Shown: one piece after another, positions 2,679 through 51,833 of the stretch | Numbering within the stretch: position 1 is the first letter of the stretch | How the letters are laid out: each line of letters begins with the position of its first letter | Assembly: GCA_963766735.1 (NCBI GenBank) | Contig: CAVYBU010000003.1 | Coordinates: forward strand, 96,001 to 160,000 | Direction: 5' to 3' | From: an uncultured Chloroflexia bacterium | Lineage (GTDB): Bacteria > Chloroflexota > Limnocylindria > Limnocylindrales > CSP1-4 | DNA: 64,000 nucleotides | Translations under genes and position numbers: made by a program | Notes under the pieces: model-generated | What the model was told of the DNA's origin: nothing | The model's database searches: none | Seen by the model: the letters and a program-made list of their open reading frames with translations, nothing else

Positions 2679-4838
2679 GTGGCCGTGGCGACGGACGTGC
2701 ATCCCGGCGTTCCCGATGCGCCCGGCCCGGCGGCGCCGGCAGTGTGGCCCGGTCGGCCGTACCCGCTGGGCGCGACGTTCGACGGCGCAGGCACCTCCTT
2801 CACGCTGTTCTCCGAGGTTGCCGACCGCGTCGAGCTGTGCCTGTTCGATGCCGATGGTGTCGAGACCCGGCTCGACCTGCCCGAGACGACCGGCCATGTC
2901 TGGCACGGGTACGTCCCGAGCGTCACGCCTGGGCAGCGGTACGGCTTCCGCGTCCATGGCCCCTGGGATCCGGCGCGCGGCCTGCGGAGCAACCCGGCAA
3001 AGCTGCTCATGGACCCGTACGCGAAGGCGATCGAGGGGTCGGTCGACTGGCACGAGGCGGTGTACCCGTACCGGTTCGGCTCCCCCGACGAGCTCGATGA
3101 CCGTGACAGCGCCCCATACGTTCCCCGATCGGTCGTCATCAACCCGTTCTTCGACTGGTCCGAGGACCGGTCCCCGCGTCGTGACCTGTACCAGGTCGTG
3201 ATCTACGAGACGCACGTCCGCGGGTTCACGATGACGCACCCCGAGATCCCGGAGGCGCTCCGCGGCACGTACGCCGGGCTCGCCCACCCGGCCGCCATCC
3301 GGCACCTCACGTCGCTGGGGGTCACCGCGGTGGAGCTGATGCCGGTCCACCAGTTCATCCACGACCAGCACCTGGTGGATCGCGGCCTGCGCAACTACTG
3401 GGGCTACAACTCGATCGGCTTCCTGGCACCCCACAACGAGTACGCGAGCTCGGGCCAGGCGGGCGAGCAGGTGGGCGAGTTCAAGGCGATGGTCCGCTCT
3501 CTCCACCAGGCCGGGATCGAGGTGATCCTCGATGTCGTCTACAACCACACCGCCGAAGGCAACCACCTGGGCCCGATGCTTGCCTTCAAGGGCATCGACA
3601 ACGTCGCCTTCTACCGGCTGATGAACGACGACCGGCGGCACTACATGGACTACACGGGGACCGGGAACTCCATCAACGTCCGCCACCCGCAGGTACTCCA
3701 GCTGATCATGGACAGCCTGCGGTACTGGGTGCTGGAGATGCACGTGGACGGGTTCCGATTCGACCTCGCCTCGACGCTTGCCAGGGAGCTCCACGACGTC
3801 GACCGCCTGTCTGCGTTCTTCGACCTCATCCACCAGGACCCGGTGATCAGCCAGGTCAAGCTGATCGCGGAGCCGTGGGACGTCGGCGAGGGCGGCTACC
3901 AGGTGGGCAACTTCCCCGTCCTGTGGTCGGAGTGGAACGGGCGCTACCGGGACACCGTGCGCGATTTCTGGCGCGGCGAGCCGGGCGCCATGAGCGACTT
4001 CGCCTACCGCCTGACGGGGAGCTCCGACCTGTACGAGGGCACCGGGCGGCGCCCGCATGCGAGCATCAACTTCGTCACCGCACACGACGGGTTCCCGCTG
4101 GCCGACCTCGTCGCCTACAACGAGAAGCACAACGACGCCAACGGTGAGGACGGCCGCGACGGGGAATCCCACAACCGTTCGTGGAACAGCGGTGTCGAGG
4201 GCCCGACGGATGACCACGGCGTGAACGCGCTGCGGCGTCGCCAGAGGCGCAACATGCTGGCGACCCTGTTCCTGTCGCAGGGCGTGCCGATGCTGCTTGG
4301 CGGCGATGAGCTGGGACGCAGCCAGGGCGGCAACAACAACGCGTATTGCCAGGACGGCCCCCTCTCGTGGTACGACTGGGAGCGGGCCGACGAGGACCAC
4401 CTCGCCTTCACCACCCACCTCCTGGCGTTCCGCCGGGACCACCCGGTGTTCCGCCGCCGCCGCTTCTTCCAGGGCAGGCCGATCCACGGCCAGGGCTTGA
4501 TGGATATCGAGTGGTTCACGACCGACGGTGCGGTGATGGAGGAGGAGTACTGGGGCCAGGACCACGCGCGCGACTTCGGGGTCCTGCTGTCCGGGGACGC
4601 GATCCCGACCCGCGACGAGCGGGGCGAGCCCGTCCGCGATGACACCTTCTACCTGCTGTTCAACGCGCGGAGCGAGGTGGTCCACGCGACACTCCCGCTC
4701 GGCAAGGGCCGGTGCTGGCGGGTGGTCCTGGACACCGGAGCCGACGAGCCCTTTCCGGCCGACGGCCCGTCATTCGCTCCCGGCGAGCGTTTGCGGTTGA
4801 CGGACCGCTCGGTCGTCGTCCTGCAGAGGGTCGAGTAG
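2679..4838 (+). CDS. glgX: Glycogen debranching enzyme (GH13)
   Basis: PYPLGAT, NYWGYN, DVVYNHT, DGFRFDLA, AEPWD, TAHDGF, GNNNAYCQD; RBS GAAGGGAGG. Confidence 0.97.
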   Translation: MAVATDVHPGVPDAPGPAAPAVWPGRPYPLGATFDGAGTSFTLFSEVADRVELCLFDADGVETRLDLPETTGHVWHGYVPSVTPGQRYGFRVHGPWDPARGLRSNPAKLLMDPYAKAIEGSVDWHEAVYPYRFGSPDELDDRDSAPYVPRSVVINPFFDWSEDRSPRRDLYQVVIYETHVRGFTMTHPEIPEALRGTYAGLAHPAAIRHLTSLGVTAVELMPVHQFIHDQHLVDRGLRNYWGYNSIGFLAPHNEYASSGQAGEQVGEFKAMVRSLHQAGIEVILDVVYNHTAEGNHLGPMLAFKGIDNVAFYRLMNDDRRHYMDYTGTGNSINVRHPQVLQLIMDSLRYWVLEMHVDGFRFDLASTLARELHDVDRLSAFFDLIHQDPVISQVKLIAEPWDVGEGGYQVGNFPVLWSEWNGRYRDTVRDFWRGEPGAMSDFAYRLTGSSDLYEGTGRRPHASINFVTAHDGFPLADLVAYNEKHNDANGEDGRDGESHNRSWNSGVEGPTDDHGVNALRRRQRRNMLATLFLSQGVPMLLGGDELGRSQGGNNNAYCQDGPLSWYDWERADEDHLAFTTHLLAFRRDHPVFRRRRFFQGRPIHGQGLMDIEWFTTDGAVMEEEYWGQDHARDFGVLLSGDAIPTRDERGEPVRDDTFYLLFNARSEVVHATLPLGKGRCWRVVLDTGADEPFPADGPSFAPGERLRLTDRSVVVLQRVE

Positions 4839-4844
4839 GCGCCC

Positions 4845-7607
4845 ATGCCCGATTCAGGCTCCCCCATCGAGGCGTTCGCAACCGGCCCCCGCCGGGTGGA
4901 TCCGCGCGCCACCTATCGGATCCAGCTGACGCCGGCGTTCACCTTCGACGATGCTGCCGGGATCGCGCCGTACCTGCAGGCCCTGGGGATCAGCCACGTC
5001 TACGCCTCGCCCTACCTGCGGGCGATGCCGGGCAGCCTCCACGGTTACGACGTCGTGGACCCGCGGAGGGTCAACCCGGAGCTCGGCGGCGAGGAGGGCC
5101 ACGCCCGGTTCAGCGCAACCCTGGGACGTCACGACCTGGGCCAGGTGCTCGACATCGTGCCCAACCACATGGCAATCGGGCCGGAGAACCCGTGGTGGTG
5201 GGACGTGCTCGAGAACGGGCCCGCCAGCCGCTGGGCGATGGCGTTCGACGTCGACTGGGCCCACCCGGAGCCACACCTCCGGGAGCGCGTCCTGCTGCCC
5301 GTTCTCGGCGACCACTACGGGCGGGTGCTCGAGGCCGGCGACCTGCGCCTCTCCTGGGATGGGCAGCGGTTCACCGTCCGGTACCACGAGCAGCGCTTCC
5401 CGGTGGCGCCCCGGAGCCTCGACGAGCTGCTCTCCCTCGCCGCCGAGCGGGCGGGCTCGGCCGAGCTCGCGTTCCTCGCCGACGCGTTCGGCGCGCTCCC
5501 GGCCTCGACCGTCGTCGAGCCGACGCTCCGCGAGCGCAGGCACCGCGACAAGGAGGTGCTCGAGGAGCGGCTCGAGGCCCTGGCCGTCGCCGAGCCCGGT
5601 GTCGCCGAGGCGATCGAGGCAGCCGTCGCCGCGACCAACGGCGACGTCGAGACCATGGACAGGATGCTCGAGCGCCAGAACTACCGCCTCTCCTGGTGGC
5701 GGGCGGCGCGCCGCGACCTCGGCTACCGCCGCTTCTTCGACGTGACGACCCTGGTCGGACTTCGGATCGAGGACCCGAGGGTGTTCGCCGAGACGCAGGC
5801 GCTGATCCTCGAGTGGCTCGCGGCCGGGGTCCTCGACGGCCTGCGGATCGACCACCCCGATGGTCTCCTCGATCCGGAGGGTTTCCTGCGGCGGCTTCGC
5901 TGGGCGAGCCCGCGGGCATGGATCGTCGTCGAGAAGATCCTGGAGCCCGGCGAGGAGCTGCGACGGAGCTGGCCGGTTGCCGGGACAAGCGGCTACGACT
6001 TCCTCCGCCGCGCAAACGGGCTGTTCGTGGACCCGGCCGGCGAGGGCCCGCTGACCGACCTGCAGACGCAGGTCACGGGCGAGGACCGTCCGTTCCGGGA
6101 CATCGCCCAGGAGTCGAAGGTGGCCATCCTCGACGAGGTCCTCGGGTCGGAGCTCGGGCGGCTCACGGCGCTCCTGCTCGACGTGCTCGAGCGGCTCCGC
6201 CGCCACCGGGACCACACTCGGCACGACCTGCACGACGCGCTCCGGGCCCTCCTGGTCGCGTTCCCCGTGTACCGGACCTACGTGCGGGTGGAGATCGCGG
6301 ACGATGGACGCCGCCTCACGCAGGTCGCCCCCGAAGACGAGGCGGTCGTGGGCGAGGCGGTCGAGGCCGCGAAGCTCCTCCGACCGGACCTGCCGCCCGA
6401 CCTGTTCGACATCCTCGGCGATCTGCTCCTGCTCCGCCGGCCGGGCGACGAGCTGGAGGAGGAGCTTGCCCTGCGGTTCCAGCAGCTCACGGGACCCGTC
6501 ATGGCAAAGGGCCTCGAGGACACGGCGTTCTACCGCGACCTGCGCCTCCTGGCGCTCAACGAGGTCGGCGGGGATCCGGGGACGTTCGGGACGAGCGTCG
6601 CCGACTTCCACGACGCGAACCGGATGGCGCAGGAGCGCTGGCCCCTCGGGATGCTCACGACCTCGACCCACGACACGAAGCGGAGCGAGGATGTCCGGAC
6701 GCGGCTCGCGGTCCTGTCCGAGGTACCCGACGCGTGGGCGCGGACGGTCTCGGAGTGGCGCCGGATGGGCGACCCGTATCGCACCGACGCAGGCCCGGAC
6801 GGTCACGCCGAGTACCTCCTCTACCAGACGCTGGTGGGCGCCTGGCCGATCGGCATGGACCGGCTCGGCCCCTACCTGTCAAAGGCCCTCCGCGAGGCCA
6901 AGCTCCGGACAACCTGGACCGCCCCAGATGCCGCCTACGAAGCCGCGGTGGTCTCGTTCGCGGAGGGCCTGCTGGGGGACGAGGAGTTCCGCACATCGCT
7001 CGAGGCGTTCATGGGCACGGTCCTCCGCCCGGGTCGCGTCAACTCGCTCGCCCAGCTCCTGGTCAAGCTCACGTCCCCCGGCGTCCCGGACGTCTACCAG
7101 GGGGCGGACCTGTGGGACATGAGCCTCGTCGATCCCGACAACCGGCGCCCGCTGGATGTCGGGATCCGGCATCGGATCCTCGCCGAGCTGACCGGCGATG
7201 GCGGACCCTCGCCCGAGGCACTGGCCGACCGGCTCGACGATCCGGCCGAGCCGGGATCGCCCAAGCTGGCTGTCCTCCGGGCGGCGCTCGCCGTCCGTGC
7301 CCGGGAGCCCGAGGCCTTCGGTCCGTCGGCGACCTACGAGCCGCTGACCGCCGACGGGACCGCGGCCGAGCACGTCATCGGGTTCGTCCGGACCGGCCGC
7401 GTCGCGACGATCGCTCCCCGCCTGACGGTCTCGCTCGGAGGTGACTGGTCCGACACGACGGTCGCCCTGGCCGCCGGTCGTTGGCGGAACGAGCTCACCG
7501 GTGAGGTCCACGAGGTAGGAGACACCCCGAAGTCCGGCCCCCTGCTGGTCGGCGACGTGCTCGGACGGTTCCCGGTCGCCCTGCTCGTCCGCGAGGAGGT
7601 GTCGTGA
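4845..7607 (+). CDS. treY: Malto-oligosyltrehalose synthase
   Basis: ATYRIQL, HGYDVVD, DIVPNHM, YRRFFDV, GLRIDHPDGL, TSTHDTKRSED. Confidence 0.97.
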   Translation: MPDSGSPIEAFATGPRRVDPRATYRIQLTPAFTFDDAAGIAPYLQALGISHVYASPYLRAMPGSLHGYDVVDPRRVNPELGGEEGHARFSATLGRHDLGQVLDIVPNHMAIGPENPWWWDVLENGPASRWAMAFDVDWAHPEPHLRERVLLPVLGDHYGRVLEAGDLRLSWDGQRFTVRYHEQRFPVAPRSLDELLSLAAERAGSAELAFLADAFGALPASTVVEPTLRERRHRDKEVLEERLEALAVAEPGVAEAIEAAVAATNGDVETMDRMLERQNYRLSWWRAARRDLGYRRFFDVTTLVGLRIEDPRVFAETQALILEWLAAGVLDGLRIDHPDGLLDPEGFLRRLRWASPRAWIVVEKILEPGEELRRSWPVAGTSGYDFLRRANGLFVDPAGEGPLTDLQTQVTGEDRPFRDIAQESKVAILDEVLGSELGRLTALLLDVLERLRRHRDHTRHDLHDALRALLVAFPVYRTYVRVEIADDGRRLTQVAPEDEAVVGEAVEAAKLLRPDLPPDLFDILGDLLLLRRPGDELEEELALRFQQLTGPVMAKGLEDTAFYRDLRLLALNEVGGDPGTFGTSVADFHDANRMAQERWPLGMLTTSTHDTKRSEDVRTRLAVLSEVPDAWARTVSEWRRMGDPYRTDAGPDGHAEYLLYQTLVGAWPIGMDRLGPYLSKALREAKLRTTWTAPDAAYEAAVVSFAEGLLGDEEFRTSLEAFMGTVLRPGRVNSLAQLLVKLTSPGVPDVYQGADLWDMSLVDPDNRRPLDVGIRHRILAELTGDGGPSPEALADRLDDPAEPGSPKLAVLRAALAVRAREPEAFGPSATYEPLTADGTAAEHVIGFVRTGRVATIAPRLTVSLGGDWSDTTVALAAGRWRNELTGEVHEVGDTPKSGPLLVGDVLGRFPVALLVREEVS

Positions 7608-9397
7608 CCGCGTTCCGCGTGTGGGCGCCGCGGCCGGAGCGCGTGGAACTGGCGATCGCACCCGCCGGAGACCAGGGCACCGGCGCCGGGACAGCGGGCG
7701 GCAGCGCCCGGAGCGCGTCGCCGGAGCGGCACGCCATGATCCGCGAGGAACGTGGCTGGTGGTCGGTCGACGTGCCTGAGGCGGGCCCGGGGTCGGACTA
7801 CGGATACGTGCTCGACGGGGCCGGCCCGTTCCCCGATCCACGGTCGCCCTGGCAGCCCGGCGGCGTCCACGCCCTGTCGCGGACCGTGGACCACGCCGCG
7901 TTCCCCTGGTCCGACCGCGGCTGGGAGGCACCTCCGCTGTCGGACGGGGTGATCTACGAGCTCCACGTCGGGACGTTCACGCCCGCCGGGACGTTCGAGG
8001 GGGCGATCGAGCGGCTGGACGACCTGGTCGAGCTCGGCATCAGCCACGTCGAGCTGATGCCCGTCGCCGAGTTCCCGGGCGATCGCGGCTGGGGCTACGA
8101 CGGGGTCGACCTGTTCGCCCCACACCACGCGTACGGCGGCCCGGAAGGCCTCAAGCGGCTCGTCGACGCATGCCACGCCCGCGGCCTTGCCGTGCTCGTC
8201 GACGTCGTCTGGAACCACCTCGGGCCGGACGGCAACTACCTCGGGCGCTTCGGGCCGTACTTCACGGATCGATACCACACCCCCTGGGGCGAGGCGGTCA
8301 ACTTCGACGGACCGGGATCGGACGAGGTCCGCGACTTCGTCATCGACAACGCACGGACGTGGCTCGAGGACTACCACGCCGACGGTCTCCGGATCGACGC
8401 CGTGCACGCGATCTTCGACCAGTCCGCCACGACGATCCTGGAGGCGGTGGCCGCGGCGGTCCACGTGCTCGGCGATCGCCTCGGACGGCGGCTCGTCGCC
8501 ATCGCAGAGAGCGACCTCAACGACCCCCGCCATGTGCGCGAGGTCGACCGGGGGGGCTACGGGCTCGACGCCCAGTGGAACGACGAGTTCCGCCATGCGC
8601 TTCACGTCGCGCTGACCGGCGAGTCGGACGGGTACCACGCGCAGTACACGGGCATCGAGGACGTGGCGACCGCCCTCCGGCAGGTGTTCGTCTTCGACGG
8701 GCGCTACTCCGCGTTCCGCGATCGATCCCACGGCCGGCCCGTCGGTGATCTGCCGGCGACCCGTTTCGTCGGGTTCCTGCAGAACCACGACCAGGTCGGG
8801 AACCGGGCCCTTGGGGATCGCATCGGTCACCTGGTGGTGCCGGAGGCGCAGCAGACCGCCGCGGCGCTGGTCCTGCTCGGGCCGTTCGTGCCGCTGCTGT
8901 TCGCAGGGGAGGAGTGGGCTGCGTCCAGCCCGTTCCAGTACTTCACCGATCACCGGGACGAGGTGCTCGGCTCCGCGGTGCGCGAGGGCCGTCGTCGGGA
9001 GTTTCCGGACTTCCTGCGCGACGGGATCGAGATCCCGGACCCCCAGGCGCCGGCGACATTCGAGCGCTCGCGACTCGACTGGGCAGAGCGGTCGCTCGAG
9101 CCCCACGCCTCGATGCTCGCCTGGTACCGCCGCCTGATCGCGTTCCGGGCAGAGCACGACGAGCTGCGCGACGGCAACCGCCCGATCGTGACCGTCAACG
9201 TCCAGGACAGCTGGATCGTCATGGCCCGGACGCGGCTGTGGGTCGTCGCCAACCTGGGTCCAGCCCCGCGAACCGTCCCGCTGGAGGACGGCCGGCCGTG
9301 GCGGATCGTGCTCGCGTCCGACGACGCGATCGCACTGGCCGGGGCCGCCGTGGCCCTGCCGGGGTGGTCGATGGCGGTGGTCGAGCCCGCGGGCTGA
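7604..9397 (+). CDS. treZ: Malto-oligosyltrehalose trehalohydrolase
   Basis: FRVWAP, IYELHVGTF, WGYDGV, GLRIDAVHA, QNHDQVGNR; GTGA overlap with treY. Confidence 0.97.
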   Translation: MTAFRVWAPRPERVELAIAPAGDQGTGAGTAGGSARSASPERHAMIREERGWWSVDVPEAGPGSDYGYVLDGAGPFPDPRSPWQPGGVHALSRTVDHAAFPWSDRGWEAPPLSDGVIYELHVGTFTPAGTFEGAIERLDDLVELGISHVELMPVAEFPGDRGWGYDGVDLFAPHHAYGGPEGLKRLVDACHARGLAVLVDVVWNHLGPDGNYLGRFGPYFTDRYHTPWGEAVNFDGPGSDEVRDFVIDNARTWLEDYHADGLRIDAVHAIFDQSATTILEAVAAAVHVLGDRLGRRLVAIAESDLNDPRHVREVDRGGYGLDAQWNDEFRHALHVALTGESDGYHAQYTGIEDVATALRQVFVFDGRYSAFRDRSHGRPVGDLPATRFVGFLQNHDQVGNRALGDRIGHLVVPEAQQTAAALVLLGPFVPLLFAGEEWAASSPFQYFTDHRDEVLGSAVREGRRREFPDFLRDGIEIPDPQAPATFERSRLDWAERSLEPHASMLAWYRRLIAFRAEHDELRDGNRPIVTVNVQDSWIVMARTRLWVVANLGPAPRTVPLEDGRPWRIVLASDDAIALAGAAVALPGWSMAVVEPAG

Positions 9398-9529
9398 CGG
9401 CGGCTGCCTTCATGCCAGCCTGCATCTTCGCCTGATGGCTCGCGATCCGGCCGGCGAACGGGACCGCACTGTCCGTCGCCCCCGGGGTCGCCGACGAGCG
9501 TTGGCCACGTCTGGTTCCCCGAGCACCGC

Positions 9530-9535
9530 TACCAT
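9530..9535 (+). promoter_or_regulatory. Putative -10 element (TACCAT) of a leaderless transcript for the urease-like genes
   Basis: TACCAT lies 6 nt before ATG 9542; no SD visible. Confidence 0.5.
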
Positions 9536-9541
9536 CCGCTG

Positions 9542-10156
9542 ATGCGCCTGATCCCCTGGGAAGAAGACCGCCTCGCGATCTTCGCCGCCGCCGAGCTGGC
9601 CCGCCGCCGCCGGGCAACCGGCCTGTCCCTCAATCACCCCGAGGCCGTCGCCGTCATCTGTGACGCGATGCTCGAGGCCGCCCGCGCAGGCGCGACGTAC
9701 GCGGAGGTGGAGGCGGCTGGGTGCGCCGCGGTGGACCCGGATGACGTGCTGGGCGGAGTCCGCGAGCTGCTGGACGAGGTCCGTCTGGAGGTGCTCCTGG
9801 GCGACGGGTCGCGGCTGATCGTGCTCAGAGATCCGCTGGACCGGGGAGTGCCACCCGACGCTTACGGCCCGGGCGCCCTCGTGATCGGCGACCAGCGGGA
9901 CGTGGAGGTGAACATGGGGCGCGAGACCGTCGAGCTGGCGGTCACCAGCCGCTCCCGGCGCCGCATCCGGATCTCCTCGCACTACCCGTTCCACCGCGTC
10001 AACCAGCGCCTGGAGTTCGATCGCACCGCCGCCGAAGGCTACCGTCTCGACATTCCGGCCGGGGGCCACGTGGGCTGGGAGCCGGGCGAGACGAAGACGG
10101 TTCTCCTCGTGCGCTACGCCGGCACACGCGGCCGGAGCCCCGGGGCCGCGCGATGA
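9542..10156 (+). CDS. ureAB: Urease gamma/beta fused subunit (divergent)
   Basis: Gamma part MRLIPWEEDRL..LNHPEAVA; beta part SSHYPFHRVN..LEFDR..GYRLDIPAG..EPGETK. Confidence 0.85.
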   Translation: MRLIPWEEDRLAIFAAAELARRRRATGLSLNHPEAVAVICDAMLEAARAGATYAEVEAAGCAAVDPDDVLGGVRELLDEVRLEVLLGDGSRLIVLRDPLDRGVPPDAYGPGALVIGDQRDVEVNMGRETVELAVTSRSRRRIRISSHYPFHRVNQRLEFDRTAAEGYRLDIPAGGHVGWEPGETKTVLLVRYAGTRGRSPGAAR

Positions 10157-11871
10157 TCCGCCTCTCCGCCGTGGAATACCGGGAGCGCTACGGGCCCACC
10201 ACGGGCGACCGGATCCGGCTGGGAGACACGGACCTCTGGATCCGCGTGCAGGAGGACCGCACCGCGCCCGGCGACGAGCCGATCTGGGGCTATGCCAAGA
10301 ACCTCCGGATGCGCATGGCGCAGACCGAGGGGCCCGCGGGACCGTCCGAGCTCGATTTCGTCATCGCCGGCGCGCTCGTCGTCGATCCCGTCATCGGCGC
10401 CGTCAAGGCGGACATCGGCATCAAGGACGGCAGGATCGCCGGTATCGGGCGCGCGGGAAGCCCCGAGATCAGCGATGGCATCGACCTGGTCGTCGGCCCG
10501 CACACCAAGCCGTACATGGCCTACGGGATGATCGTCACGCCGGGCGCGGTGGACTCGCACGTCCACACCATCAGCCCGGAGCTGCTCCCGGCGGCCCTCG
10601 CCGCGGGCGTGACCACGTTCATCACCGCCGGGTTCGAGGAGCCGCCGTACGCGATGGAGCGGGTGCTGGCGGGGCTCGAGAGCTGGCCGGTCAACGTCGC
10701 GATGCAGGCGGGCGCCCGGGCCATCGAGGACGGGCACCTGGACGCGCTGCTCGAGGCCGGTGCGGTGGGCTTCAAGATCCACGAGGACAACGGCGCCGAC
10801 CCGGACCTCATCGACCACGTGCTGCGGTACGCGGACCTGCGCGACGTCTCCGTGAGCCTCCATACGGACGGCCTGCACGAGTCCGCCGAGCTGGAGGACA
10901 CCGTCGCGGCCATCGCCGGGCGCACCGTCCACGCCTACCACGTGGAGGGGACGGGAGGCGGGCACGTGCCGGACCTGCTGGGACTGGTCCGCGAGCCGTC
11001 GATCCTGTGCTCGTCCACCACGCCCACGCTGCCGTTCGGCGTGCACGCGGCGGTGGAACACCTGCCGATGACGGTCCTGAACCACGGCCTGTCCTGGAAC
11101 GTTCCGGGGGACGTGGCGCTCGTTCTGGAGCGCATCCTGGAGGCCCGGATGGCGGCGGAGGGGCCGCTGCACGAGCTGGGGGCGATCGGGATCATCAACA
11201 GCGACTCGCAGGGGATGGGGCGCATCGGCGAGACGGTGCGGCGGGCTTTCCAGCTGGCGCACGTGATGAAGGCCTGGCGCCGTTCCGGGGCTGCCGACGG
11301 GTTGCCGGGCCTGCCCGATGATGACGGCCTCCTGGACCCCGACGATCGGGACGACACGGCGCGCGTGCTGCGCTACCTGGCGAAGGTGACGATCGAGCCC
11401 GCGATCACGCACGGCATCTCGGACCATGTCGGGTCGCTACAGGTGGGGCGGCTGGCGGACCTCGTGATATGGAAGCCCGGGTTCTTCGGCGTGAAGCCCG
11501 AGTGGGTGTTCAAGGGCGGCTTTCCGGCCTGGGGACCGCTGGGCGATGGGAACGCGTCGCTGGAGCGCACGGAGCCAACCCGGTACCGGCCGGACTGGGC
11601 CGGGATCTCCACGGCCGCGCCAAAGGTCACGGTCACCTTCGTGGCACCCGGGATCGATCGCGTGGGACTGGCACGGCGGCTGGGAACCCGGCGGGCGCTG
11701 CTCCCGGTCCACGGCCTGCGCGGGCTGACGCGTTCCTCGCTGCACGCCAACCGGGCCACGGCGCCGGTGGAGATCGACGTGCGGACGGGGGCGGTGTCCC
11801 TGGGCGGGCGGACGCTGGCCGTGGACCCGGTGACGGAGGTCCCGCTCAGCCGTCGCTACCTGCTGCGGTAG
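10153..11871 (+). CDS. ureC: Urease alpha subunit homolog (divergent amidohydrolase)
   Basis: YGPTTGDRIRL, DSHVH, FKIHED, LHTD, YHVEG.GGGH, SDSQGMGR; ATGA overlap with the upstream gene. Confidence 0.88.
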   Translation: MIRLSAVEYRERYGPTTGDRIRLGDTDLWIRVQEDRTAPGDEPIWGYAKNLRMRMAQTEGPAGPSELDFVIAGALVVDPVIGAVKADIGIKDGRIAGIGRAGSPEISDGIDLVVGPHTKPYMAYGMIVTPGAVDSHVHTISPELLPAALAAGVTTFITAGFEEPPYAMERVLAGLESWPVNVAMQAGARAIEDGHLDALLEAGAVGFKIHEDNGADPDLIDHVLRYADLRDVSVSLHTDGLHESAELEDTVAAIAGRTVHAYHVEGTGGGHVPDLLGLVREPSILCSSTTPTLPFGVHAAVEHLPMTVLNHGLSWNVPGDVALVLERILEARMAAEGPLHELGAIGIINSDSQGMGRIGETVRRAFQLAHVMKAWRRSGAADGLPGLPDDDGLLDPDDRDDTARVLRYLAKVTIEPAITHGISDHVGSLQVGRLADLVIWKPGFFGVKPEWVFKGGFPAWGPLGDGNASLERTEPTRYRPDWAGISTAAPKVTVTFVAPGIDRVGLARRLGTRRALLPVHGLRGLTRSSLHANRATAPVEIDVRTGAVSLGGRTLAVDPVTEVPLSRRYLLR

Positions 11872-11921
11872 CGTCCCGCCAGCGGGGACGGCGGCGTCGA
11901 CGGGCCCGGAAGTCGCGACGC

Positions 11922-12974
11922 CTACCAGATGTCCCCGACCGTGAACCCCTCGGGGAACGGGTCCGTGGGATCCACGACGTATGACGCGAAGCCCGTGATC
12001 CACGCCGTGCCGGTGATGGACGGGACGATGGCGGCACGCTCACCCACGGCTGTCTCCGCCTCCACCCGTCCAGCGAACACCGTGTCCAGGATGCTCTCGT
12101 GGCGGAACTCCTCACCCAGGCGGAGGCGGCCCCGTGCGTGCAGCGTGGCCATCTTTGCGCATGTCCCGGTCCCGCACGGAGAGCGATCCAGGACGCCGGT
12201 CCACGTGGACGGATCAGACCAATCGAGCGTTCGCGTGGAGACCGTCGTGGCGTTGCGCCACGAGTTGCGTGGGTCGTGCGGTGGACCGGACAGCTGGCCG
12301 ATGGTGATGCCGGCGAACCCGGGCTGCTCGGGGTGGACGACCGGGAGCTGCTCCGCTGCCGCCGCCTTGATCATCTCTGTGACGCGGGTGATGTCGCGAC
12401 CCTCGTCAGGGACAAGCCGAAAGCCGAGCGCCTCCGCGTCCGCGATGACGTGGAACATGCCGCCGTACGCCACGTCCACGGTCACCGTGCCCAGCTCCGG
12501 CACCTCGATCGGCGCGTCCAGGTGTGTGGCGAACGCCGGGACGTTGCTGAACGTGACACCGGTGACCTTGCCTCCGGCGCAGGTGGCGCGGATCCGGATC
12601 AGGCCGGCGGGCGCCTCCAGGACGATCTCGGTCACGGGTTCGTGCATCGGCAGCATGCCCGTCTCGAGCAGCGCGGTGGCGACGCAGATCGTGTTGGACC
12701 CGGACATGCCCGGGTACTCGACGTGCTCCATGATCACGAACCCCGCATCGGCGTCCGGCTGCGTGGGCGGCAGGATCACGTTGGCGCACAGGGCGGGGTA
12801 GCCGCGCGGCTCGCGGAGCAGGAGGCGCCGGAGCGAGTCGCCGTGGTGCTCGAGGTGCTGCGCCTTGTCGAACATGGTGGCGCCGGGGACGTCCAGCACG
12901 CCCCCGACGACGACGCGCCCCGGCTCGCCTGCCGCATGCAGGTCGACCGCCTGGATCATCCGCGCGAGCCGCAT
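11922..12974 (-). CDS. Proline racemase / hydroxyproline epimerase family protein (Ser/Cys catalytic pair)
   Basis: DLHAAGEPGR, EPRG, MSGSN, DRSPCGTGT; RBS AAGGAGG before ATG 12974. Confidence 0.9.
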   Translation of the reverse strand: MRLARMIQAVDLHAAGEPGRVVVGGVLDVPGATMFDKAQHLEHHGDSLRRLLLREPRGYPALCANVILPPTQPDADAGFVIMEHVEYPGMSGSNTICVATALLETGMLPMHEPVTEIVLEAPAGLIRIRATCAGGKVTGVTFSNVPAFATHLDAPIEVPELGTVTVDVAYGGMFHVIADAEALGFRLVPDEGRDITRVTEMIKAAAAEQLPVVHPEQPGFAGITIGQLSGPPHDPRNSWRNATTVSTRTLDWSDPSTWTGVLDRSPCGTGTCAKMATLHARGRLRLGEEFRHESILDTVFAGRVEAETAVGERAAIVPSITGTAWITGFASYVVDPTDPFPEGFTVGDIW

Positions 12975-13005
12975 CCGGCGTCCTCCTTGATCCCGTCGGG
13001 CGGCC

Positions 13006-13464
13006 CTAGCGCCTGCGCGCGTCGGCGACCTGGCGTTCCATGTCCCGCTTCGCGTCGCGCTCCGCGATCTCGCGCCGCCTGTCCCACGTCTGCTTGCCGC
13101 GCGCGAGGCCGAGCTCAACCTTCGCCCTGCCGCGGGAGATGTAGATCGAGAGGGGCACGATCGTCAGGCCCTTGGCCTTGGTCTTGCCCAGGAGCTCGTC
13201 GATCTCGCGCCGGTGGAGCAGCAGCTTCCGGGCACGCTTCGGCTCGTGGTTGAAGCGGACGTCGGTCGTCCCCCACGGGGCGATGTGGAGGCCGATGATC
13301 CAGGCCTCGTCGCGTTCGATGCGCGCGTAGGCGTCCGCGAGGCTCACCTTGTGGTCGCGGATGCTCTTGATCTCGGTGCCGCGCAGCACGATTCCGGCCT
13401 CGAAGGTGTCCTCGATGCTGTAGTCGTGGTGGGCTCTTCGGTTTCGGGCGATCGTGTCGCCCAT
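13006..13464 (-). CDS. smpB: SsrA-binding protein
   Basis: NRRAHHDY..EAGIVLRGTEIKS, RKLLLH, GLARGK; RBS AGGAGAGGAG before ATG 13464. Confidence 0.97.
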   Translation of the reverse strand: MGDTIARNRRAHHDYSIEDTFEAGIVLRGTEIKSIRDHKVSLADAYARIERDEAWIIGLHIAPWGTTDVRFNHEPKRARKLLLHRREIDELLGKTKAKGLTIVPLSIYISRGRAKVELGLARGKQTWDRRREIAERDAKRDMERQVADARRR

Positions 13465-13530
13465 GGCGGAGCTCCTCTCCTGGGGTGGAACGGCCAGTGT
13501 CGCACGGGCGACTCCGGACTCCGGACGCAC

Positions 13531-47593: not shown

Positions 47594-48559
47594 TCAGGGG
47601 GCGGCAAGCACCTCCGCCACGCGGTCCACGTTCCAGCGCATGAGACCGGTGTACGTGTCCTGCGGCGCGTCTCCGGTGCTGTCGGTGTAGAGCCCCGAGA
47701 CGACGGTCGCGCCGGTCTCGTCCGCGATGGTCCGGGCCAGGTCCTCGCTGAACTGGGCCTCGGCGAAGATGGCCTTGATGCCCTTCTCCCGCACGACGCG
47801 TACCAGTGCCGCGATCTGCGCCGCGCTGGGGTCCTGGCCGGGCGAATCCACGATCGTGCCGTCGATCGTCAGGCCGTACGCAGTGGCGAAGTACGGGAAT
47901 GCGTCGTGGAACGAGAGCACGGTGCGATCGGACGGGGGAATCGCCTCCATCTTCGACCGCAGCTCCGCGTCCAGGTCCGCAAGCGTTCGCCCGTAGACCG
48001 CAGCCTGGTCTCGATAGGCTGCAGCGTTGGCGGGATCCACCTCGGCCAGCGACTCGCCGATCCGTTGCGCGTACTTGGCCGCATACGCGGCGTTGAGCCA
48101 GAGGTGCGGGTTGACGGCCGCCTGGTCCTGCCCGTCGCCGGCGAGGTAGGTCACCCCGGGCAGGTTCTCGCCCAGGTCCACGACCGGCGCATCCGTGCCG
48201 GCGTCGGTCACGAGGTTCCCGAGCCACCCGTCCAGGCCCAGGCCGTTCACAAACACGATGTCCGCCTCCGACACCCGCCGGACGTCGGAAGGTGTGGGAT
48301 CGAACGTATGCACCTCCCCGCCCTTGGGCACCAGGCTGTCAACGTGCACGCGCTGGCCGCCCACCTGGGCAACGAGATCCGCCAGGATCGTGGTGGTGGT
48401 GACGACCCGGAGGGTTCCGGCAGGGACGTCGCCGGACGGGCTCCCACCGCCGCATGCGGCGGTGGCGAGCGCGATCAGCGCCACGAGCGCGATCAGCCGA
48501 GCGCCGCGCGATCGCGTGTTTCCGTCGAGGCGGGATCGGCGGCCGAGCGGCGGGATCAT
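47594..48559 (-). CDS. Zn/Mn ABC transporter substrate-binding lipoprotein
   Basis: Lipobox TAAC, EVHTFDP, NGLGLD, NPHLWL, FHDAF.YF. Confidence 0.93.
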   Translation of the reverse strand: MIPPLGRRSRLDGNTRSRGARLIALVALIALATAACGGGSPSGDVPAGTLRVVTTTTILADLVAQVGGQRVHVDSLVPKGGEVHTFDPTPSDVRRVSEADIVFVNGLGLDGWLGNLVTDAGTDAPVVDLGENLPGVTYLAGDGQDQAAVNPHLWLNAAYAAKYAQRIGESLAEVDPANAAAYRDQAAVYGRTLADLDAELRSKMEAIPPSDRTVLSFHDAFPYFATAYGLTIDGTIVDSPGQDPSAAQIAALVRVVREKGIKAIFAEAQFSEDLARTIADETGATVVSGLYTDSTGDAPQDTYTGLMRWNVDRVAEVLAAP

Positions 48560-49020
48560 GCAGGCTCATCCTGTCTGGCCTGGCACGCCGAGCACAGGCC
48601 GAAGACCTCGAGTCGGTGGGCCGTGACGCGGAAGCCGGACCGTTGGCCGACCTCCGCGAGTGCCCGGGTCAGGCCGAAGTCATCGACGTCCAGCGACCGC
48701 CCGCAGCCGGTGCAGATCGCGTGATGGTGGTGCACCGGATCGCATGCCACGTAGGCGTGCTCGCCGTCCGGCAGGTCCACGCGCTCCACCAGCCCCAGGG
48801 ACGCGAACAGGTCCAGCGCGCGGAAGATGGTTGCCCGCCCGATCCTTGGCTGGCGTCGGCCCGCGTCCGCCGCGAGGTCGGCTGCGGTGAAGTACCCGTC
48901 GCGACGCGCGACCAGCTCCGCCACCGTGAGGCGCGGGCCTGTGAGCCGGCGGCCTGCCTGGCCCAGGGCCTTGGCCAGGTGGTTCTCGGCTTGCGCCGCC
49001 GGCTCGCGTGTCCCGGTCAT
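48556..49020 (-). CDS. Fur family regulator, probably Zur
   Basis: RLT..R, ATIFRAL, HHHHAICTGC, GLCSAC; located inside a metal ABC operon. Confidence 0.9.
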   Translation of the reverse strand: MTGTREPAAQAENHLAKALGQAGRRLTGPRLTVAELVARRDGYFTAADLAADAGRRQPRIGRATIFRALDLFASLGLVERVDLPDGEHAYVACDPVHHHHAICTGCGRSLDVDDFGLTRALAEVGQRSGFRVTAHRLEVFGLCSACQARQDEPA

Positions 49021-49892
49021 GCGGTCGCCGCCGTTTCATCGAGCGTGTCCGCGATGGCCTCACCGCCCCGCCGCCGCCCCAGCATTCCCCGTGGCCCGAA
49101 CACGAGCGCGACGACGAACATGCCGGTCTGGACGAGGACGATCGTGGCACCGCTGGCGACGTCCAGCCAGTAGGAGAGGTACAGGCCGAGGATGGAGCTT
49201 GCGATCCCGACCAGCGCCGCCAGGACCATCAGGCGCGTGAACCGGACCGTGAGCATCTGGGCCGTCGCCGCTGGCGTGACCAGCATCGCCACGACCAGGA
49301 TGATCCCGACCGCCTGCAGGCTGACGACGATCGTGAGCGCCACGAGGGCCAGGAACAGGTACTCGAGACGGTCGACCTTGATCCCTGATGCGGCGGCACC
49401 CAACGGGTCGAATGTTGCGTACAGCAGCTCCTTCCACAGCAGCGCGACGATCGCGAGCACGAGGAGGCCCAGCACCATCAGCCCGACGAGATCCTCGGCG
49501 CTGATCGCCAGGACGTTGCCCAGCAGGAAGCTGAACAGGTCGGCAACGTAACCGTCGATCGTGCTGAACAGGAACACGCCGAACGCGAACGTGCCCGCGA
49601 ACAGGACTCCGATCGCCGTGTCCTGGCGGATGCCCGCCCGCTTCGTCACGAACCCGATCGCGAGGGCTGTTCCCACGGCTGCGATCGCGGCCCCGATGTA
49701 GAACGGGATCGACAGCATGAAGGCGGCGACCACGCCCGGAAACGCGGCGTGAGCGATGGCGTCCCCGATGAACGCGACCCCGCGCAGGACGACGTAGGTG
49801 CCGACGACAGCGCACACCACCCCGACCATCATCGAAGCGATCAGGGCGCGGACGAAGAACCCGAGCGCCAGCGGTTCCAGGACGAGATCCAT
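49017..49892 (-). CDS. Zn/Mn ABC transporter permease
   Basis: GDAIAHAAFPG, QDTAIG, FDP, VGIILV.AMLVTPAATA. Confidence 0.93.
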   Translation of the reverse strand: MDLVLEPLALGFFVRALIASMMVGVVCAVVGTYVVLRGVAFIGDAIAHAAFPGVVAAFMLSIPFYIGAAIAAVGTALAIGFVTKRAGIRQDTAIGVLFAGTFAFGVFLFSTIDGYVADLFSFLLGNVLAISAEDLVGLMVLGLLVLAIVALLWKELLYATFDPLGAAASGIKVDRLEYLFLALVALTIVVSLQAVGIILVVAMLVTPAATAQMLTVRFTRLMVLAALVGIASSILGLYLSYWLDVASGATIVLVQTGMFVVALVFGPRGMLGRRRGGEAIADTLDETAATA

Positions 49893-50803
49893 CAGCGCTG
49901 ATCCCCCTGGTCGTGGAAGTGGCGCTCGCCCGGGGCGGCGTCATCGTGATGGTGGGCGTCGTCCAGGACGACGGTGCTGCCCTCCAGCACCAGCAGGTGC
50001 CCGCCGTACGCCCGCTCGAGGACACCGGCGTCCAGGACGAGGTTGGACGGGCCGTAGGCGATGACGGTGCGGTTGATCGCCAGGACCTGCTGGAACCGAT
50101 CGGCGGCGCAGGCGAGGTCGTGCGTGGTTGCCACCACGGTCTTGCCGCGGGCCGCCTGCGCCTCGAGGAGATCCATGAGGAGCTCCTGCGTCGTGGCGTC
50201 GATGCCGGTGACGGGCTCATCGAGCAGGAACAGGTCCGGTTCCGCGGCGAGCGCCCGGGCAAGGAACACCCGCCGGCGCTGTCCGCCTGACAGCCGTCCG
50301 ACCTGGGTCCGGCGGTGCGGATCCATCCGCACCTGCTTCAGCGCCTCGGCGACCGCTCGCCTGTCGTCGGGGCCGGGCCGGCGGACGGACCCCAGGCGCG
50401 GGAAGCGGCCCATCATCACCACATCCTCGACCGTGACCGGGAACGCCCAGTCGACCAGCTCTGCCTGCGGGACGTAGGCGACGCGCCGGGACTCACGACC
50501 GGGGACCGCACCGAGGATCTCGATGCGCCCGGTCCAGGGGCGCGCAAGACCGGCCATGAGCTTGAGCAGCGTGCTCTTGCCGGCACCGTTGGGCCCGACC
50601 ACGGCGAGCAGGCTGCCGGGCTCGACTGCCAGCGTCACGTGCTCCAGGGCCGCGCGCTCACCGTACCCGGCCGTCACGTCGCTCAGCCACACGTCCGCGT
50701 GCGCATGGGCGTGCGGTGCCGACAGCTCGTCCTCGTGCACGTGCGGCGGCCGGGCGCCGCGGCCGGAAGGCGCCAGCGTGGCGGTAGGGCTCTCTGGTTC
50801 CAT
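49892..50803 (-). CDS. Zn/Mn ABC transporter ATP-binding protein with His-rich termini
   Basis: GPNGAGKST, AYVPQ..DW.FP, LSGGQ, LDEP, THDL; start ATG 50803. Confidence 0.93.
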   Translation of the reverse strand: MEPESPTATLAPSGRGARPPHVHEDELSAPHAHAHADVWLSDVTAGYGERAALEHVTLAVEPGSLLAVVGPNGAGKSTLLKLMAGLARPWTGRIEILGAVPGRESRRVAYVPQAELVDWAFPVTVEDVVMMGRFPRLGSVRRPGPDDRRAVAEALKQVRMDPHRRTQVGRLSGGQRRRVFLARALAAEPDLFLLDEPVTGIDATTQELLMDLLEAQAARGKTVVATTHDLACAADRFQQVLAINRTVIAYGPSNLVLDAGVLERAYGGHLLVLEGSTVVLDDAHHHDDAAPGERHFHDQGDQR

Positions 50804-50820
50804 ATGAGACAGAGTATCAT
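50804..50820. promoter_or_regulatory. Putative Zur/Fur box
   Basis: ATGAGAC-AGA-GTATCAT imperfect inverted repeat (6/7 arms), AT-rich, abutting the first start codon of the operon. Confidence 0.6.
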
Positions 50821-50990
50821 CTGGCGCAAGTTCAGCGCCAAGGTCGGCGGCAACGACAGCGGCAGGTACGGAGGCGGGCGGCCGTGGACACGGCACGACG
50901 CTCTTGGCCGATCCCGCCGATCTGCGCCACAATGCCTCGGCATCCCACCCGAGTACGACCCTTCCTCGAACACGAATTCGGAGGCACCCC

Positions 50991-51833
50991 CTGAGCGGCA
51001 AGCAGCCCACCACCCAGACCACGCGCCGGGAGCGTCGCGCCTCGGAGCGCCAGGACCGGTTCAGCAAGGATCGTGACGAGCGCCGCGGCCGGGCCCCCGG
51101 CGGCGAGGGCGCCGGTTCGTCGCTCATCAACACCCGGAACATGACCATCGCCGGCGTGATCGCCGGCGTGCTGATCGTCGTGGTCGTCGGCATCGGCCAG
51201 CTCGGCGGCAGGGTCACCGGGACTCTCCAGGATCCGGCAACGGCCTACCCGGCGGCGCTCCTCGACGGGACTGCGATCGGGAAGGCGGACGCGCCGGTCA
51301 CCATGGAGGTCTACGAGGACTACCAGTGCCCGTACTGCGGGCAGTACTCGCTGGACGTCGAGCCCGTGCTGGTCAGCCAGTACGTGACGCCGGGCACGCT
51401 GCGGATCGTGCACAACGACATCGGGATCCTCGGCCGTGGCGGGCCGGACGACGAGTCGGTCCTCACGGCACGTGGTGCCTTCTGCGCCAACGAGCAGGGC
51501 AAGTACTGGGACTACGCGCACTGGGTGTACGCCAACCAGGACGGCGAGAACGCCGGCGGCTTCCGCAGGGAGCGGTTGACGGCGATTGCCGAGGCCGCGG
51601 GCATCGAGCCGGTGGCCTTCTCGGCCTGCCTCGATGGCGCCGCCGCGACGGCTGCGGTCGACCAGGCGAACGCCGAAGCGACCGCCCTGGGAATCAACTC
51701 CACACCGACGATGTACGTCAACGGCAAGAGGATCGAGGTGTCCCTCGATCCCAGCGCGATCGGGGCGGAGATCGAAGCCGCTGCCGCTGCCGCGGCCGGC
51801 GTGCCTGACGCCTCGGCGAGCACGGTCCCCTGA
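50991..51833 (+). CDS. DsbA family thioredoxin-fold protein (start uncertain)
   Basis: TM anchor, YEDYQCPYC, GINSTPT cis-Pro loop. Confidence 0.9.
   Translation: MSGKQPTTQTTRRERRASERQDRFSKDRDERRGRAPGGEGAGSSLINTRNMTIAGVIAGVLIVVVVGIGQLGGRVTGTLQDPATAYPAALLDGTAIGKADAPVTMEVYEDYQCPYCGQYSLDVEPVLVSQYVTPGTLRIVHNDIGILGRGGPDDESVLTARGAFCANEQGKYWDYAHWVYANQDGENAGGFRRERLTAIAEAAGIEPVAFSACLDGAAATAAVDQANAEATALGINSTPTMYVNGKRIEVSLDPSAIGAEIEAAAAAAAGVPDASASTVP

Follow-up and report, generated by a model that had tools for sequence, protein, structure and literature searches.

Urease is the textbook nickel enzyme, its dependence on UreD, UreE, UreF and UreG is the model for metal-centre loading, and its gene ureC is a widely used marker of ureolysis. 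In the urease of Klebsiella aerogenes, H219, D221, H320 and R336 have substrate-binding and catalytic roles, and in canonical ureases the backbone of Ala167 contacts the amino group of urea. The iron urease of Helicobacter mustelae (UreA2B2) needs neither accessory proteins nor nickel for its activity; a near paralog of ordinary urease with a canonical loop and flap, it is found in a genome that also carries a full nickel urease system. The UreABC of Bacillus subtilis is canonical in sequence. According to the available portion of PMC8600894, B. subtilis possesses ureABC only, its genome being without accessory genes, and its intrinsic urease activity is very low. Clusters of two genes, ure(AB)C, with no adjoining accessory genes are already known from Streptomyces (SCO5525/SCO5526, SAV2715), where they were treated as annotated ureases (available portions of PMC2492869, 2008, and PMC5489568, 2017) or listed among urea-utilising genes (SCO5525-5526; available portion of PMC3293853), with neither a loop change nor an enzyme test reported in those portions of the three papers. 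Here, a two-gene ureAB-ureC-like unit was analysed in a stretch of 64,000 nucleotides (hereafter the window; positions 96,001 to 160,000 of contig CAVYBU010000003.1, assembly GCA_963766735.1) from an uncultured soil bacterium of the Limnocylindrales (Chloroflexota). The system is of interest for the possible assembly of a urease-type centre without helpers and for the class of substrate, possibly a new one, on which it may act.

Residues of the UreC homolog were assigned by alignment to Helicobacter pylori UreB (1e9z), by a 64-row alignment and by translation of the coordinates. The two genes and the residues on which the comparison turns were as follows, with K. aerogenes numbering in brackets.

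9542..10156, plus strand: ureAB-like gene encoding a fused urease gamma and beta, 204 amino acids (aa) (Pfam Urease_gamma at residues 1-98, Urease_beta at 110-196)
10153..10156, plus strand: ATGA, the ureAB stop overlapping the ureC start by 4 nt (translated coordinates)
10153..11871, plus strand: ureC-like gene encoding a urease alpha homolog of the non-canonical short-loop class, 572 aa (Pfam Urease_alpha and Amidohydro_1)
10285..10299, plus strand: WGYAK, replacing the canonical FGGGK (alignments and translation)
10558..10566, plus strand: HVH, with metal ligands H136 and H138 (H134/H136) (alignments and translation)
10624..10650, plus strand: TAGFEEPPY, replacing the canonical pocket-wall loop GGGTGPAxGTxATTCTPG (alignments and translation)
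10774..10788, plus strand: KIHED, with K208 at the carbamylated bridging lysine position, H210 and D212 (K217, H219, D221) (alignments and translation)
10861..10863, plus strand: H237, metal ligand in LHTD (H246) (64-row alignment and translation)
10939..10941, plus strand: H263, metal ligand in YHVEG (H272) (64-row alignment and translation)
11068..11091, plus strand: flap MTVLNHGL, with N310 for Cys319, H311 corresponding to the kept His320, and G312 for His321 (alignments and translation)
11131..11133, plus strand: R327, kept (R336) (64-row alignment and translation)
11203..11214, plus strand: DSQG, with metal ligand D351 (D360) and G354 replacing Ala363 (alignments and translation)

The two-metal site was complete (H136, H138, K208, H237, H263 and D351), and the equivalents of K. 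aerogenes H219, D221, H320 and R336 were all present (H210, D212, H311 and R327); the K. aerogenes numbering agreed with the titles of variant urease structures. A first-pass annotation, made by a model from the sequence letters, had proposed that the six ligand positions were retained, and the alignments and translation bore this out. The pocket wall was rebuilt. The H. pylori loop GGGTGP-ADGTNATTI-TPGRRN aligned to TAGFEEPPY, and the loop has lost 11 residues, since the spacing from HxH to KxHED was 74 residues in the window protein compared to 85 in 18 of the 18 classified canonical Chloroflexota UreC. The deleted stretch spans the position of Ala167, as counted along the 1e9z alignment (H. 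pylori numbering being that of K. aerogenes plus 2), so that the earlier proposal of a loop about 11 residues shorter over Ala167 stood. In the flap, the Cys-His-His of canonical urease was N-H-G, the middle His alone being retained (MLMVCHHL to MTVLNHGL), and SDSQAMG was SDSQGMG; these replacements and that of FGGGK by WGYAK, all three named in the first-pass annotation, were found again in the alignment to 1e9z and in the translation.

The retained ligands and catalytic equivalents are favourable to the protein being a genuine urease, converting urea to ammonia and carbamate, which would load its metal by itself and recover nitrogen from arginase-made urea; the loop and flap changes would then reflect lost docking surfaces for UreD/F/G and lost tunnel surfaces, or tuning to another metal. 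Such an enzyme is quite possible while falling short of probable, and the deletion of the Ala167 segment, with a conserved acidic motif in its place, argues against it.

At the level of the whole protein, the best PDB match of the UreC homolog was a urease alpha subunit (H. pylori UreB 1e9z; E 2e-138). A model predicted by AlphaFold2 from a 36-row alignment reached a mean pLDDT of 84.3 and a pTM of 0.91, with low pLDDT at residues 46-55 (the WGYAK region), and matched solved ureases in Foldseek with TM scores of 0.89-0.92, the next folds being hydantoinase and allantoinase (0.43-0.47). Pfam scores were 125.6 bits for PF00449 and 125.2 bits for PF01979. The homolog passed the NCBIfam subfamily model NF009686 (617.8 > 354) and failed all urease-alpha equivalog cut-offs (TIGR01792, 546.6 < 680; NF009685, 553.3 < 907; NF009834, 508.2 < 1001; NF010591, 486.2 < 1083). 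Nesting among characterised ureases, which the first-pass annotation had considered as the opposite outcome, was not seen, the homolog standing under every equivalog cut-off and reaching the subfamily model only; the four low scores also count against the genuine-urease explanation, while the name 'urease subunit alpha', given in every source naming these proteins, agrees with it. Judged by its sequence matches, the UreC homolog is a member of the urease alpha family in the broad sense. Its partner gamma and beta subunits were encoded directly beside it as a single fused gene, the product of which was collinear over residues 1-196 with residues 1-193 of the H. pylori UreA gamma-beta fusion and scored under the NCBIfam NF009671 cut-off (209.7 < 243). 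The ATGA overlap of the two genes predicts their translational coupling.

A search of 1.84 billion representatives returned 4159 matches, the full-length ones of which were aligned. In the 64-row alignment, UreC sequences with intact ligands fell into three kinds by loop segment: canonical, with a 29-residue segment, a C-H-H flap and Ala363; mid class, with a 24-25-residue segment (e.g. QEFGPFWGVGV) and Gly363; and short class, that of the window, with an 18-19-residue segment (AGFEEPP) and Gly363. A quick maximum-likelihood tree with 39 rows, unrooted and including several rows of odd composition, grouped the non-canonical sequences in a single branch with an SH-aLRT support of 99; in the same tree, the short-loop sequences with 18- and 19-residue segments together were supported at 97, and those with 18 residues at 99. 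Members of the branch had an HxH-to-KxHED spacing of 74-82, Gly at position 363 and a flap other than Cys-His-His. A distinct clade sharing the loop deletion, as the first-pass annotation had envisaged, was thus recovered from the 64-row alignment, the supported branch and the spacing classes alike.

Conservation was compared across 28 canonical, 44 mid-class and 225 short-class sequences, the last being mostly close kin. A residue invariant in canonical UreC was replaced by a different short-class invariant at 26 positions, including 158-164 (loop), 312, 324 and 326 (flap), and 349 and 354 (SDSQG), while 106 positions were invariant in both. T158, A159, F161, E162, E163 and P164 were at least 95% conserved in the 225 short-class sequences, where the 28 canonical ones had other invariants. 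Position 312 was Gly in 97% of the short class and His in 96% of canonical sequences, and the Ala363 position was Gly in 100% of the short class and 98% of the mid class but Ala in 93% of canonical UreC. Residues 45, 47 and 48 of WGYAK were also clade-specific.

The short class occurred in Limnocylindrales (67-96% identity to the window protein) and in metagenome-assembled genomes (MAGs) of Actinomycetota (57-63%). The close relatives were MAGs labelled Chloroflexota or Candidatus Limnocylindrales, and 7745 relatives were present among 8000 scored candidates in the protein database, the best 120 all being 79-96% identical. Seven large GC-rich actinobacterial genomes carried a mid-class ure(AB)C alongside a second UreC. 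A metagenome scan with the mid-class alignment gave, among the matches listed, mostly canonical sequences (about 40% identity), which were reused as controls, and only L141-L146 belonged to the mid class. Taken together, these sequence comparisons place the window gene in a large, old and separate non-canonical UreC branch of Chloroflexota and Actinomycetota. One Chloroflexota genome (G055) possessed two short-class UreC copies (C11:204201-205901 and C79:29592-31295), with 72% and 70% identity to the window protein. Long 'fused' UreC open reading frames (ORFs; 616-883 aa) in Actinomycetota loci were rejected as single-chain ureases, as they had no gamma or beta Pfam domain and were over-extended ORF calls.

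The source genome of the window (3.62 Mb, 35 contigs, 93.85% complete) possessed one ureC only, and searches for UreD, UreF, UreG and UreE gave no match in it, although the same searches were positive in control urease genomes. The UreG model weakly picked up HypB-type GTPases in controls such as Escherichia coli and nothing in the window genome. No match to the NicO nickel/cobalt transporter was obtained in this genome, and a Pfam scan of 48 further ORFs of the window found no urease accessory gene or nickel transporter. The lack of ureD/E/F/G and of a nickel transporter that the first-pass annotation had reported for the window was upheld by the Pfam scan, and the search for ureDFG and a canonical ureC extended it to the genome, with a single ureC and no match to the four accessory proteins. 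No UrtA and no urea carboxylase scored over cut-off in the genome. It did possess three arginase-family (urea-forming) genes, as well as an AguB-like hydrolase far under the AguB cut-off. With no canonical urease or accessory gene found in this genome, and no urea carboxylase over cut-off, the homolog would also have a place as the plain urease of its host.

Absence of the helpers was the rule in the clade. UreG over cut-off was found in 0 of 41 relatives, among which UreF gave one weak match (G019), and in 0 of 23 further short-class holders, in each of which the short-class UreC was the sole UreC. Among 251 Chloroflexota genomes drawn as a sample, UreG was over cut-off in 17 of the 18 with a classified canonical UreC (the 18th had it split) and in none of the eight with a non-canonical UreC alone (six short, two mid); two further genomes of the draw had a mid-class gene and, on another contig, a second UreC adjoining UreG. 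At loci with at least 3.5 kb of upstream and at least 5 kb of downstream flank, a UreG homolog adjoined 28 of 31 canonical loci, 0 of 57 short-class and 0 of 14 mid-class loci. UrtA over cut-off was found in 10 of the 251 genomes, or 9 when the unpublished G101 is left out, each with canonical UreC, and in 0 of the 8 with non-canonical UreC only. Its absence from these eight and from the window genome speaks weakly against a plain urease, and the co-occurrence weighs little because most canonical holders are without UrtA too and the numbers are small.

The loss of accessory genes could be read differently, as having left a decaying or non-catalytic urease remnant. Damaged copies occurred in the genus, with UreC split in two frames in G001 (C2:148738-150454) and reduced to a 90-residue C-terminal remnant in G003 (C19:59944-60213); the UreC of G043 (C59:24184-25755) was without residues 158-213, the bridging lysine included; and degenerate UreC-like proteins without ligands are present in databases. 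These damaged copies in kin represent either occasional loss within a conserved clade or assembly faults. Both window genes were nonetheless full length, with GC3 values (0.89 for ureAB, 0.94 for ureC) resembling those of their neighbours, and pairwise comparison with 10 orthologous loci gave dN/dS ratios of 0.10-0.23 for ureC and 0.13-0.28 for ureAB. The gene was retained in 19 of 24 other genomes of the genus, in one copy each and at 79-91% identity, and 206 of 572 positions were at least 95% conserved across the 225 clade members, every ligand included. As the clade also shares its loop motif across two phyla, decay is highly improbable, and the view of the first-pass annotation that full-length ORFs with normal codon usage did not look like decay is sustained by the GC3 values, the dN/dS range of 0.10-0.28 and the retention in the genus.

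The explanation preferred here is that ureAB and ureC encode an active metallo-amidohydrolase of urease fold, made of a fused gamma/beta chain and an alpha chain. Its metal centre would assemble by itself, without UreD/E/F/G, through carbamylation of the lysine by CO2 and uptake of a fitting metal (Ni, or Fe, Mn, Zn or Co), as in other enzymes of the amidohydrolase superfamily. By the mechanism of urease, a metal-bridging hydroxide would attack the carbonyl of a ureido group (H2N-CO-N). Deletion of the loop would take away the wall that closes the pocket around the amino group of urea (the Ala167 segment), and the conserved acidic F-E-E motif standing in its place could hold a charged substituent. 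Because of this lost wall and this motif, the substrate is proposed to be an N-substituted urea of the N-carbamoyl-amine type (N-carbamoylputrescine, for example), and urea may be accepted too; cleavage of the N-carbamoyl-amine would yield the free amine together with CO2 and ammonia. As to the substrate, this is a tentative proposal, held at a little short of an even chance.

The first-pass annotation had suggested a larger substrate (substituted urea, carbamate, amide or guanidine-type) or another metal; what support there is for a substituted urea is indirect and came from relatives rather than from the window locus. To our knowledge, no urease-fold protein active on N-carbamoylputrescine is known. 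AguB, which acts on this compound, has an unrelated fold and chemistry, with a Cys-Glu-Lys triad and no metal. Agmatine deiminase converts agmatine to N-carbamoylputrescine, which is a mono-substituted urea; AguB or a transcarbamylase then takes off the carbamoyl group, the AguB step releasing putrescine, CO2 and ammonia (available portion of PMC9397018). At the flank-filtered loci, a gene of the agmatine-deiminase family (PAD_porph) adjoined 2 of 57 short-class UreC (L076, L244), 7 of 14 mid-class UreC (L226-L232) and 0 of 31 canonical UreC. Further PAD_porph-adjoining loci with shorter flanks were L061, L075 and L191 (short) and L142, L143 and L145 (mid); the adjacency at L076, L191, L075, L226-L232, L145 and L142 was found by tblastn. 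In all four loci whose strands were read (L061, L143, L226 and L230), PAD_porph lay on the same strand as ure(AB)C. Gene order varied between lineages: PAD_porph abutted the ureA-like gene in L061, L244 was ordered PAD, ureAB, ureC, MFS, PAD_porph lay upstream in L143, and L226 and L230 were ordered ureAB, ureC, PAD, TetR with a divergent NCS1 permease. None of the nine PAD-linked genomes had the AguB equivalog over cut-off (for the two short-class ones, no match at 1e-20 in G556 and 99.6 bits in G042). This recurrent operon in Actinomycetota relatives points to an N-carbamoyl-amine substrate, and plain urea hydrolysis leaves it unexplained, since the products of agmatine-deiminase-family enzymes are substituted ureas. 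The MFS gene of L244 was compared with the MFS gene found upstream of ureAB in a Limnocylindrales subgroup and rejected as its counterpart, the two not being homologous.

Several observations weigh against the N-carbamoyl-amine proposal. Urea may still be the substrate, because all residues known for urea hydrolysis are kept except the Ala167 loop, and a plain urease acting on internal urea fits the window genome because of its three arginase-family genes and the lack of another urea-degrading system. At the mid-class loci L221 and L222 (G228, G293), a tandem pair of arginase-family genes, along with a DUF1989 gene, converged on ureABC, a neighbourhood that fits urea; DUF1989 proteins are companions of urea or guanidine carboxylase systems. 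PAD_porph adjoined neither the window locus nor any of about 60 Limnocylindrales loci, and was found anywhere in the genome in only 4 of 41 relatives, corresponding to 3 of the 20 gene-holding genomes of the genus; a PAD_porph link in the genus of the window, tested in this way, failed, and its absence from 17 of the 20 holders favours plain urease. The only PAD_porph gene of the window genome (G000:C2:30030-31050) was split over two overlapping frames (235.8 and 69.2 bits), by either a frameshift or a sequencing error. Since the gene is rare in the genus and never adjacent in Limnocylindrales, the enzyme there would not depend on an agmatine deiminase of its own. The PAD-linked loci represent about three or four independent lineages, because the seven mid-class genomes of L226-L232 are close kin, and the window locus itself had no informative neighbour, with treY/treZ upstream and a Pro_racemase-family gene downstream. 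A self-activating urease hydrolysing plain urea has precedents in the B. subtilis ureABC described above (PMC8600894, available portion) and in H. mustelae UreA2B2, a close structural match (3qga); both of these helper-free precedents keep the canonical loop, which counts against this explanation. In the lineage of the window, plain urea hydrolysis by such an enzyme is a close rival.

The rebuilt pocket would also be compatible with another small C-N substrate, such as guanidine or a guanidino compound, biuret, a carbamate ester, formamide or another amide, or citrulline, and the neighbours of relatives were varied. Ornithine carbamoyltransferase (OTC) and amino-acid (carbamate-type) kinase genes lay upstream on the same strand at L062 (G043), and at L062 only; Amidohydro_3 genes adjoined L083, L144 and L245; hydantoinase A genes were near L071 and L222; and an NCS1 permease adjoined five mid-class loci. 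None of these was as recurrent as PAD_porph or present at the window locus, and the retained catalytic set of urease suggests that the group attacked is a terminal ureido or amide, so that such a substrate is unlikely. The transporters adjoining non-canonical loci (NCS1 permease, MFS, a family-5 solute-binding-protein ABC system, lying within the operon at L224 and L225, and a PotA-like ABC ATPase) were those of organic solutes, not urea. Outside the lineage of the window, the genes adjoining clade members suggest, from their sequences, a role in the metabolism of guanidino and ureido compounds. At the mid-class locus L224 (G297:C1, 8050-12079), two opposite-strand Uma2-family (putative restriction endonuclease) genes lay between ureA/ureB and ureC.

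Extended from the window to its kin, the N-carbamoyl-amine proposal would make the whole non-canonical branch, in soil and freshwater Chloroflexota and Actinomycetota, one of helper-independent and probably non-nickel N-carbamoyl-amine amidohydrolases rather than ureases. It would probably include the second 'urease' of Streptomyces, and would complete the agmatine-deiminase pathway in the place of AguB in many actinomycetes. This broader claim is quite possible but less likely than not.

The surroundings of the gene pair, in a window with a GC content of about 0.71, comprised the following features.

2679-9397, plus strand: CBM48/alpha-amylase debranching-type gene, then treY-like and treZ-like genes, upstream of ureAB on the same strand
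9530..9535, plus strand: -10-like hexamer TACCAT, 6 nt 5' of the ureAB ATG (sequence read; footprint in relatives)
11922-13118, minus strand: Pro_racemase-family gene, convergent with ureC (best NCBIfam match trans-3-hydroxy-L-proline dehydratase, 372 bits against a cut-off of 550)
47594-51217, minus strand: metal-uptake cluster of a ZnuA-type binding protein, a Fur-family regulator, an ABC-3 permease and an ABC ATPase (Pfam scan)

The first-pass annotation had described a two-gene unit, apparently leaderless and bounded by a convergent gene. The unit and its boundary were recovered (ORFs at 9542-10156 and 10153-11871, followed by the Pro_racemase-family gene on the minus strand). Its start at 9530 did not stand as a gene start, as the gene begins at 9542, and is instead the first position of the TACCAT hexamer. 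The leaderless character was supported, with TACCAT 6 nt before the ATG, no Shine-Dalgarno found before the ureAB start and no sigma-70 consensus match found in the ureAB upstream region. A TA[CG][CG]AT hexamer preceded the start codon in 40 of 44 related loci, at a spacing of 6 nt in 28 and 7 nt in 12, the four loci without it being three Actinomycetota loci and L082. Because it is kept amid upstream DNA that is otherwise unalike, TACCAT is probably the promoter of a leaderless ureAB transcript starting at or next to the ATG. In Limnocylindrales (window 9500-9541, loci L013-L091), the hexamer forms a clean phylogenetic footprint of this predicted promoter. In the metatranscriptome run X20, ureC, treZ and the racemase gene were each covered in part by low-depth contigs (depth 2-3, 95-99% alike); they are at most a weak hint of transcription, as such libraries can contain DNA, and the uncovered stretches carry no information.

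Upstream, the gap between the treZ-like gene and ureAB was 145 bp, and the debranching-type/treY/treZ arrangement was found at only 6-10 of the related loci. Downstream, the Pro_racemase-family ORF is likely over-extended at its 5' end by about 48 codons, overlapping smpB (13006-13530), and is followed by smpB, an S41 peptidase, ftsX and ftsE; a homolog of the Pro_racemase-family gene was present at 39 of the 57 short-class loci. When the neighbours of 79 related loci were clustered, the downstream synteny was of housekeeping type only (Pro_racemase-family, smpB, S41 peptidase, ftsX, ftsE, prfB), the genes upstream of ureAB varied (treYZ, serpin, GNAT, MFS, TetR), and no conserved partner, accessory gene or metal transporter was found among these neighbours. 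A GC-rich inverted repeat (GTCCCGC..GCGGGAC, 11872-11895) lay directly after the ureC stop, between the convergent genes; it had no T-run and was not called by the terminator scan. The metal-uptake cluster was about 36 kb from the urease-like genes, with no sign of linkage.

A deep, conserved and helper-free branch with the catalytic core of urease offers a natural experiment on the self-assembly of such a centre and on its choice of metal. With a substituted urea as substrate, the branch would add a new reaction to the urease fold and supply the missing enzyme of a route by which bacteria of soil and freshwater use agmatine/polyamine nitrogen. Should the branch prove unable to hydrolyse urea, ureC counts and genome-based predictions of urea use would be inflated for Chloroflexota and Actinomycetota; and were the N-carbamoyl-amine proposal true, a share of environmental 'ureC' reads would not report ureolysis.

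A search of the literature, with most subscription journals outside it and an unseen test possible, returned no biochemistry of ure(AB)C-only clusters, of a loop-deleted UreC, of a Limnocylindria urease or of a urease-fold enzyme on N-carbamoylputrescine. Two retrieved items were rejected: the 'SCO5526' of PMC4991794, which denotes ribonucleotide reductase genes, and the 'urease' of PMC13625781, which is an assay reagent. Compared with the canonical nickel ureases (K. aerogenes 2KAU/1FWJ, S. pasteurii 4UBP/5A6T, H. pylori 1E9Z), the window proteins had the same gamma/beta/alpha make-up and predicted fold (TM 0.89-0.92), at 38-42% identity, with the same six metal-site residues and the equivalents of H219, D221, H320 and R336. 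They differed by the loop 11 residues shorter, the N-H-G flap, Gly for Ala363, WGYAK for FGGGK and the 26 swapped invariants, by the lack of any ureD/E/F/G found in the genome, and by scores below the equivalog cut-offs. The H. mustelae UreA2B2 (3QGA) likewise consists of a fused gamma-beta chain and an alpha chain, and matched both window proteins, whereas the B. subtilis UreABC has three separate subunits and is known from a single species, compared to the fused gamma/beta chain and deep clade of the window type. AguB, of the carbon-nitrogen hydrolase family, is proposed as a functional analogue only, PAD_porph adjoining the non-canonical ure(AB)C in genomes without AguB over cut-off. The Streptomyces clusters had the layout of the window pair, with a fused ureAB and a ureC without adjoining accessory genes, and the seven actinobacterial genomes with such clusters carried a UreC of the same clade; theirs were of the mid-loop class (spacing 82, QEFGPVWGVGV) with a second UreC present, whereas that of the window was of the short-loop class (spacing 74, AGFEEPP).

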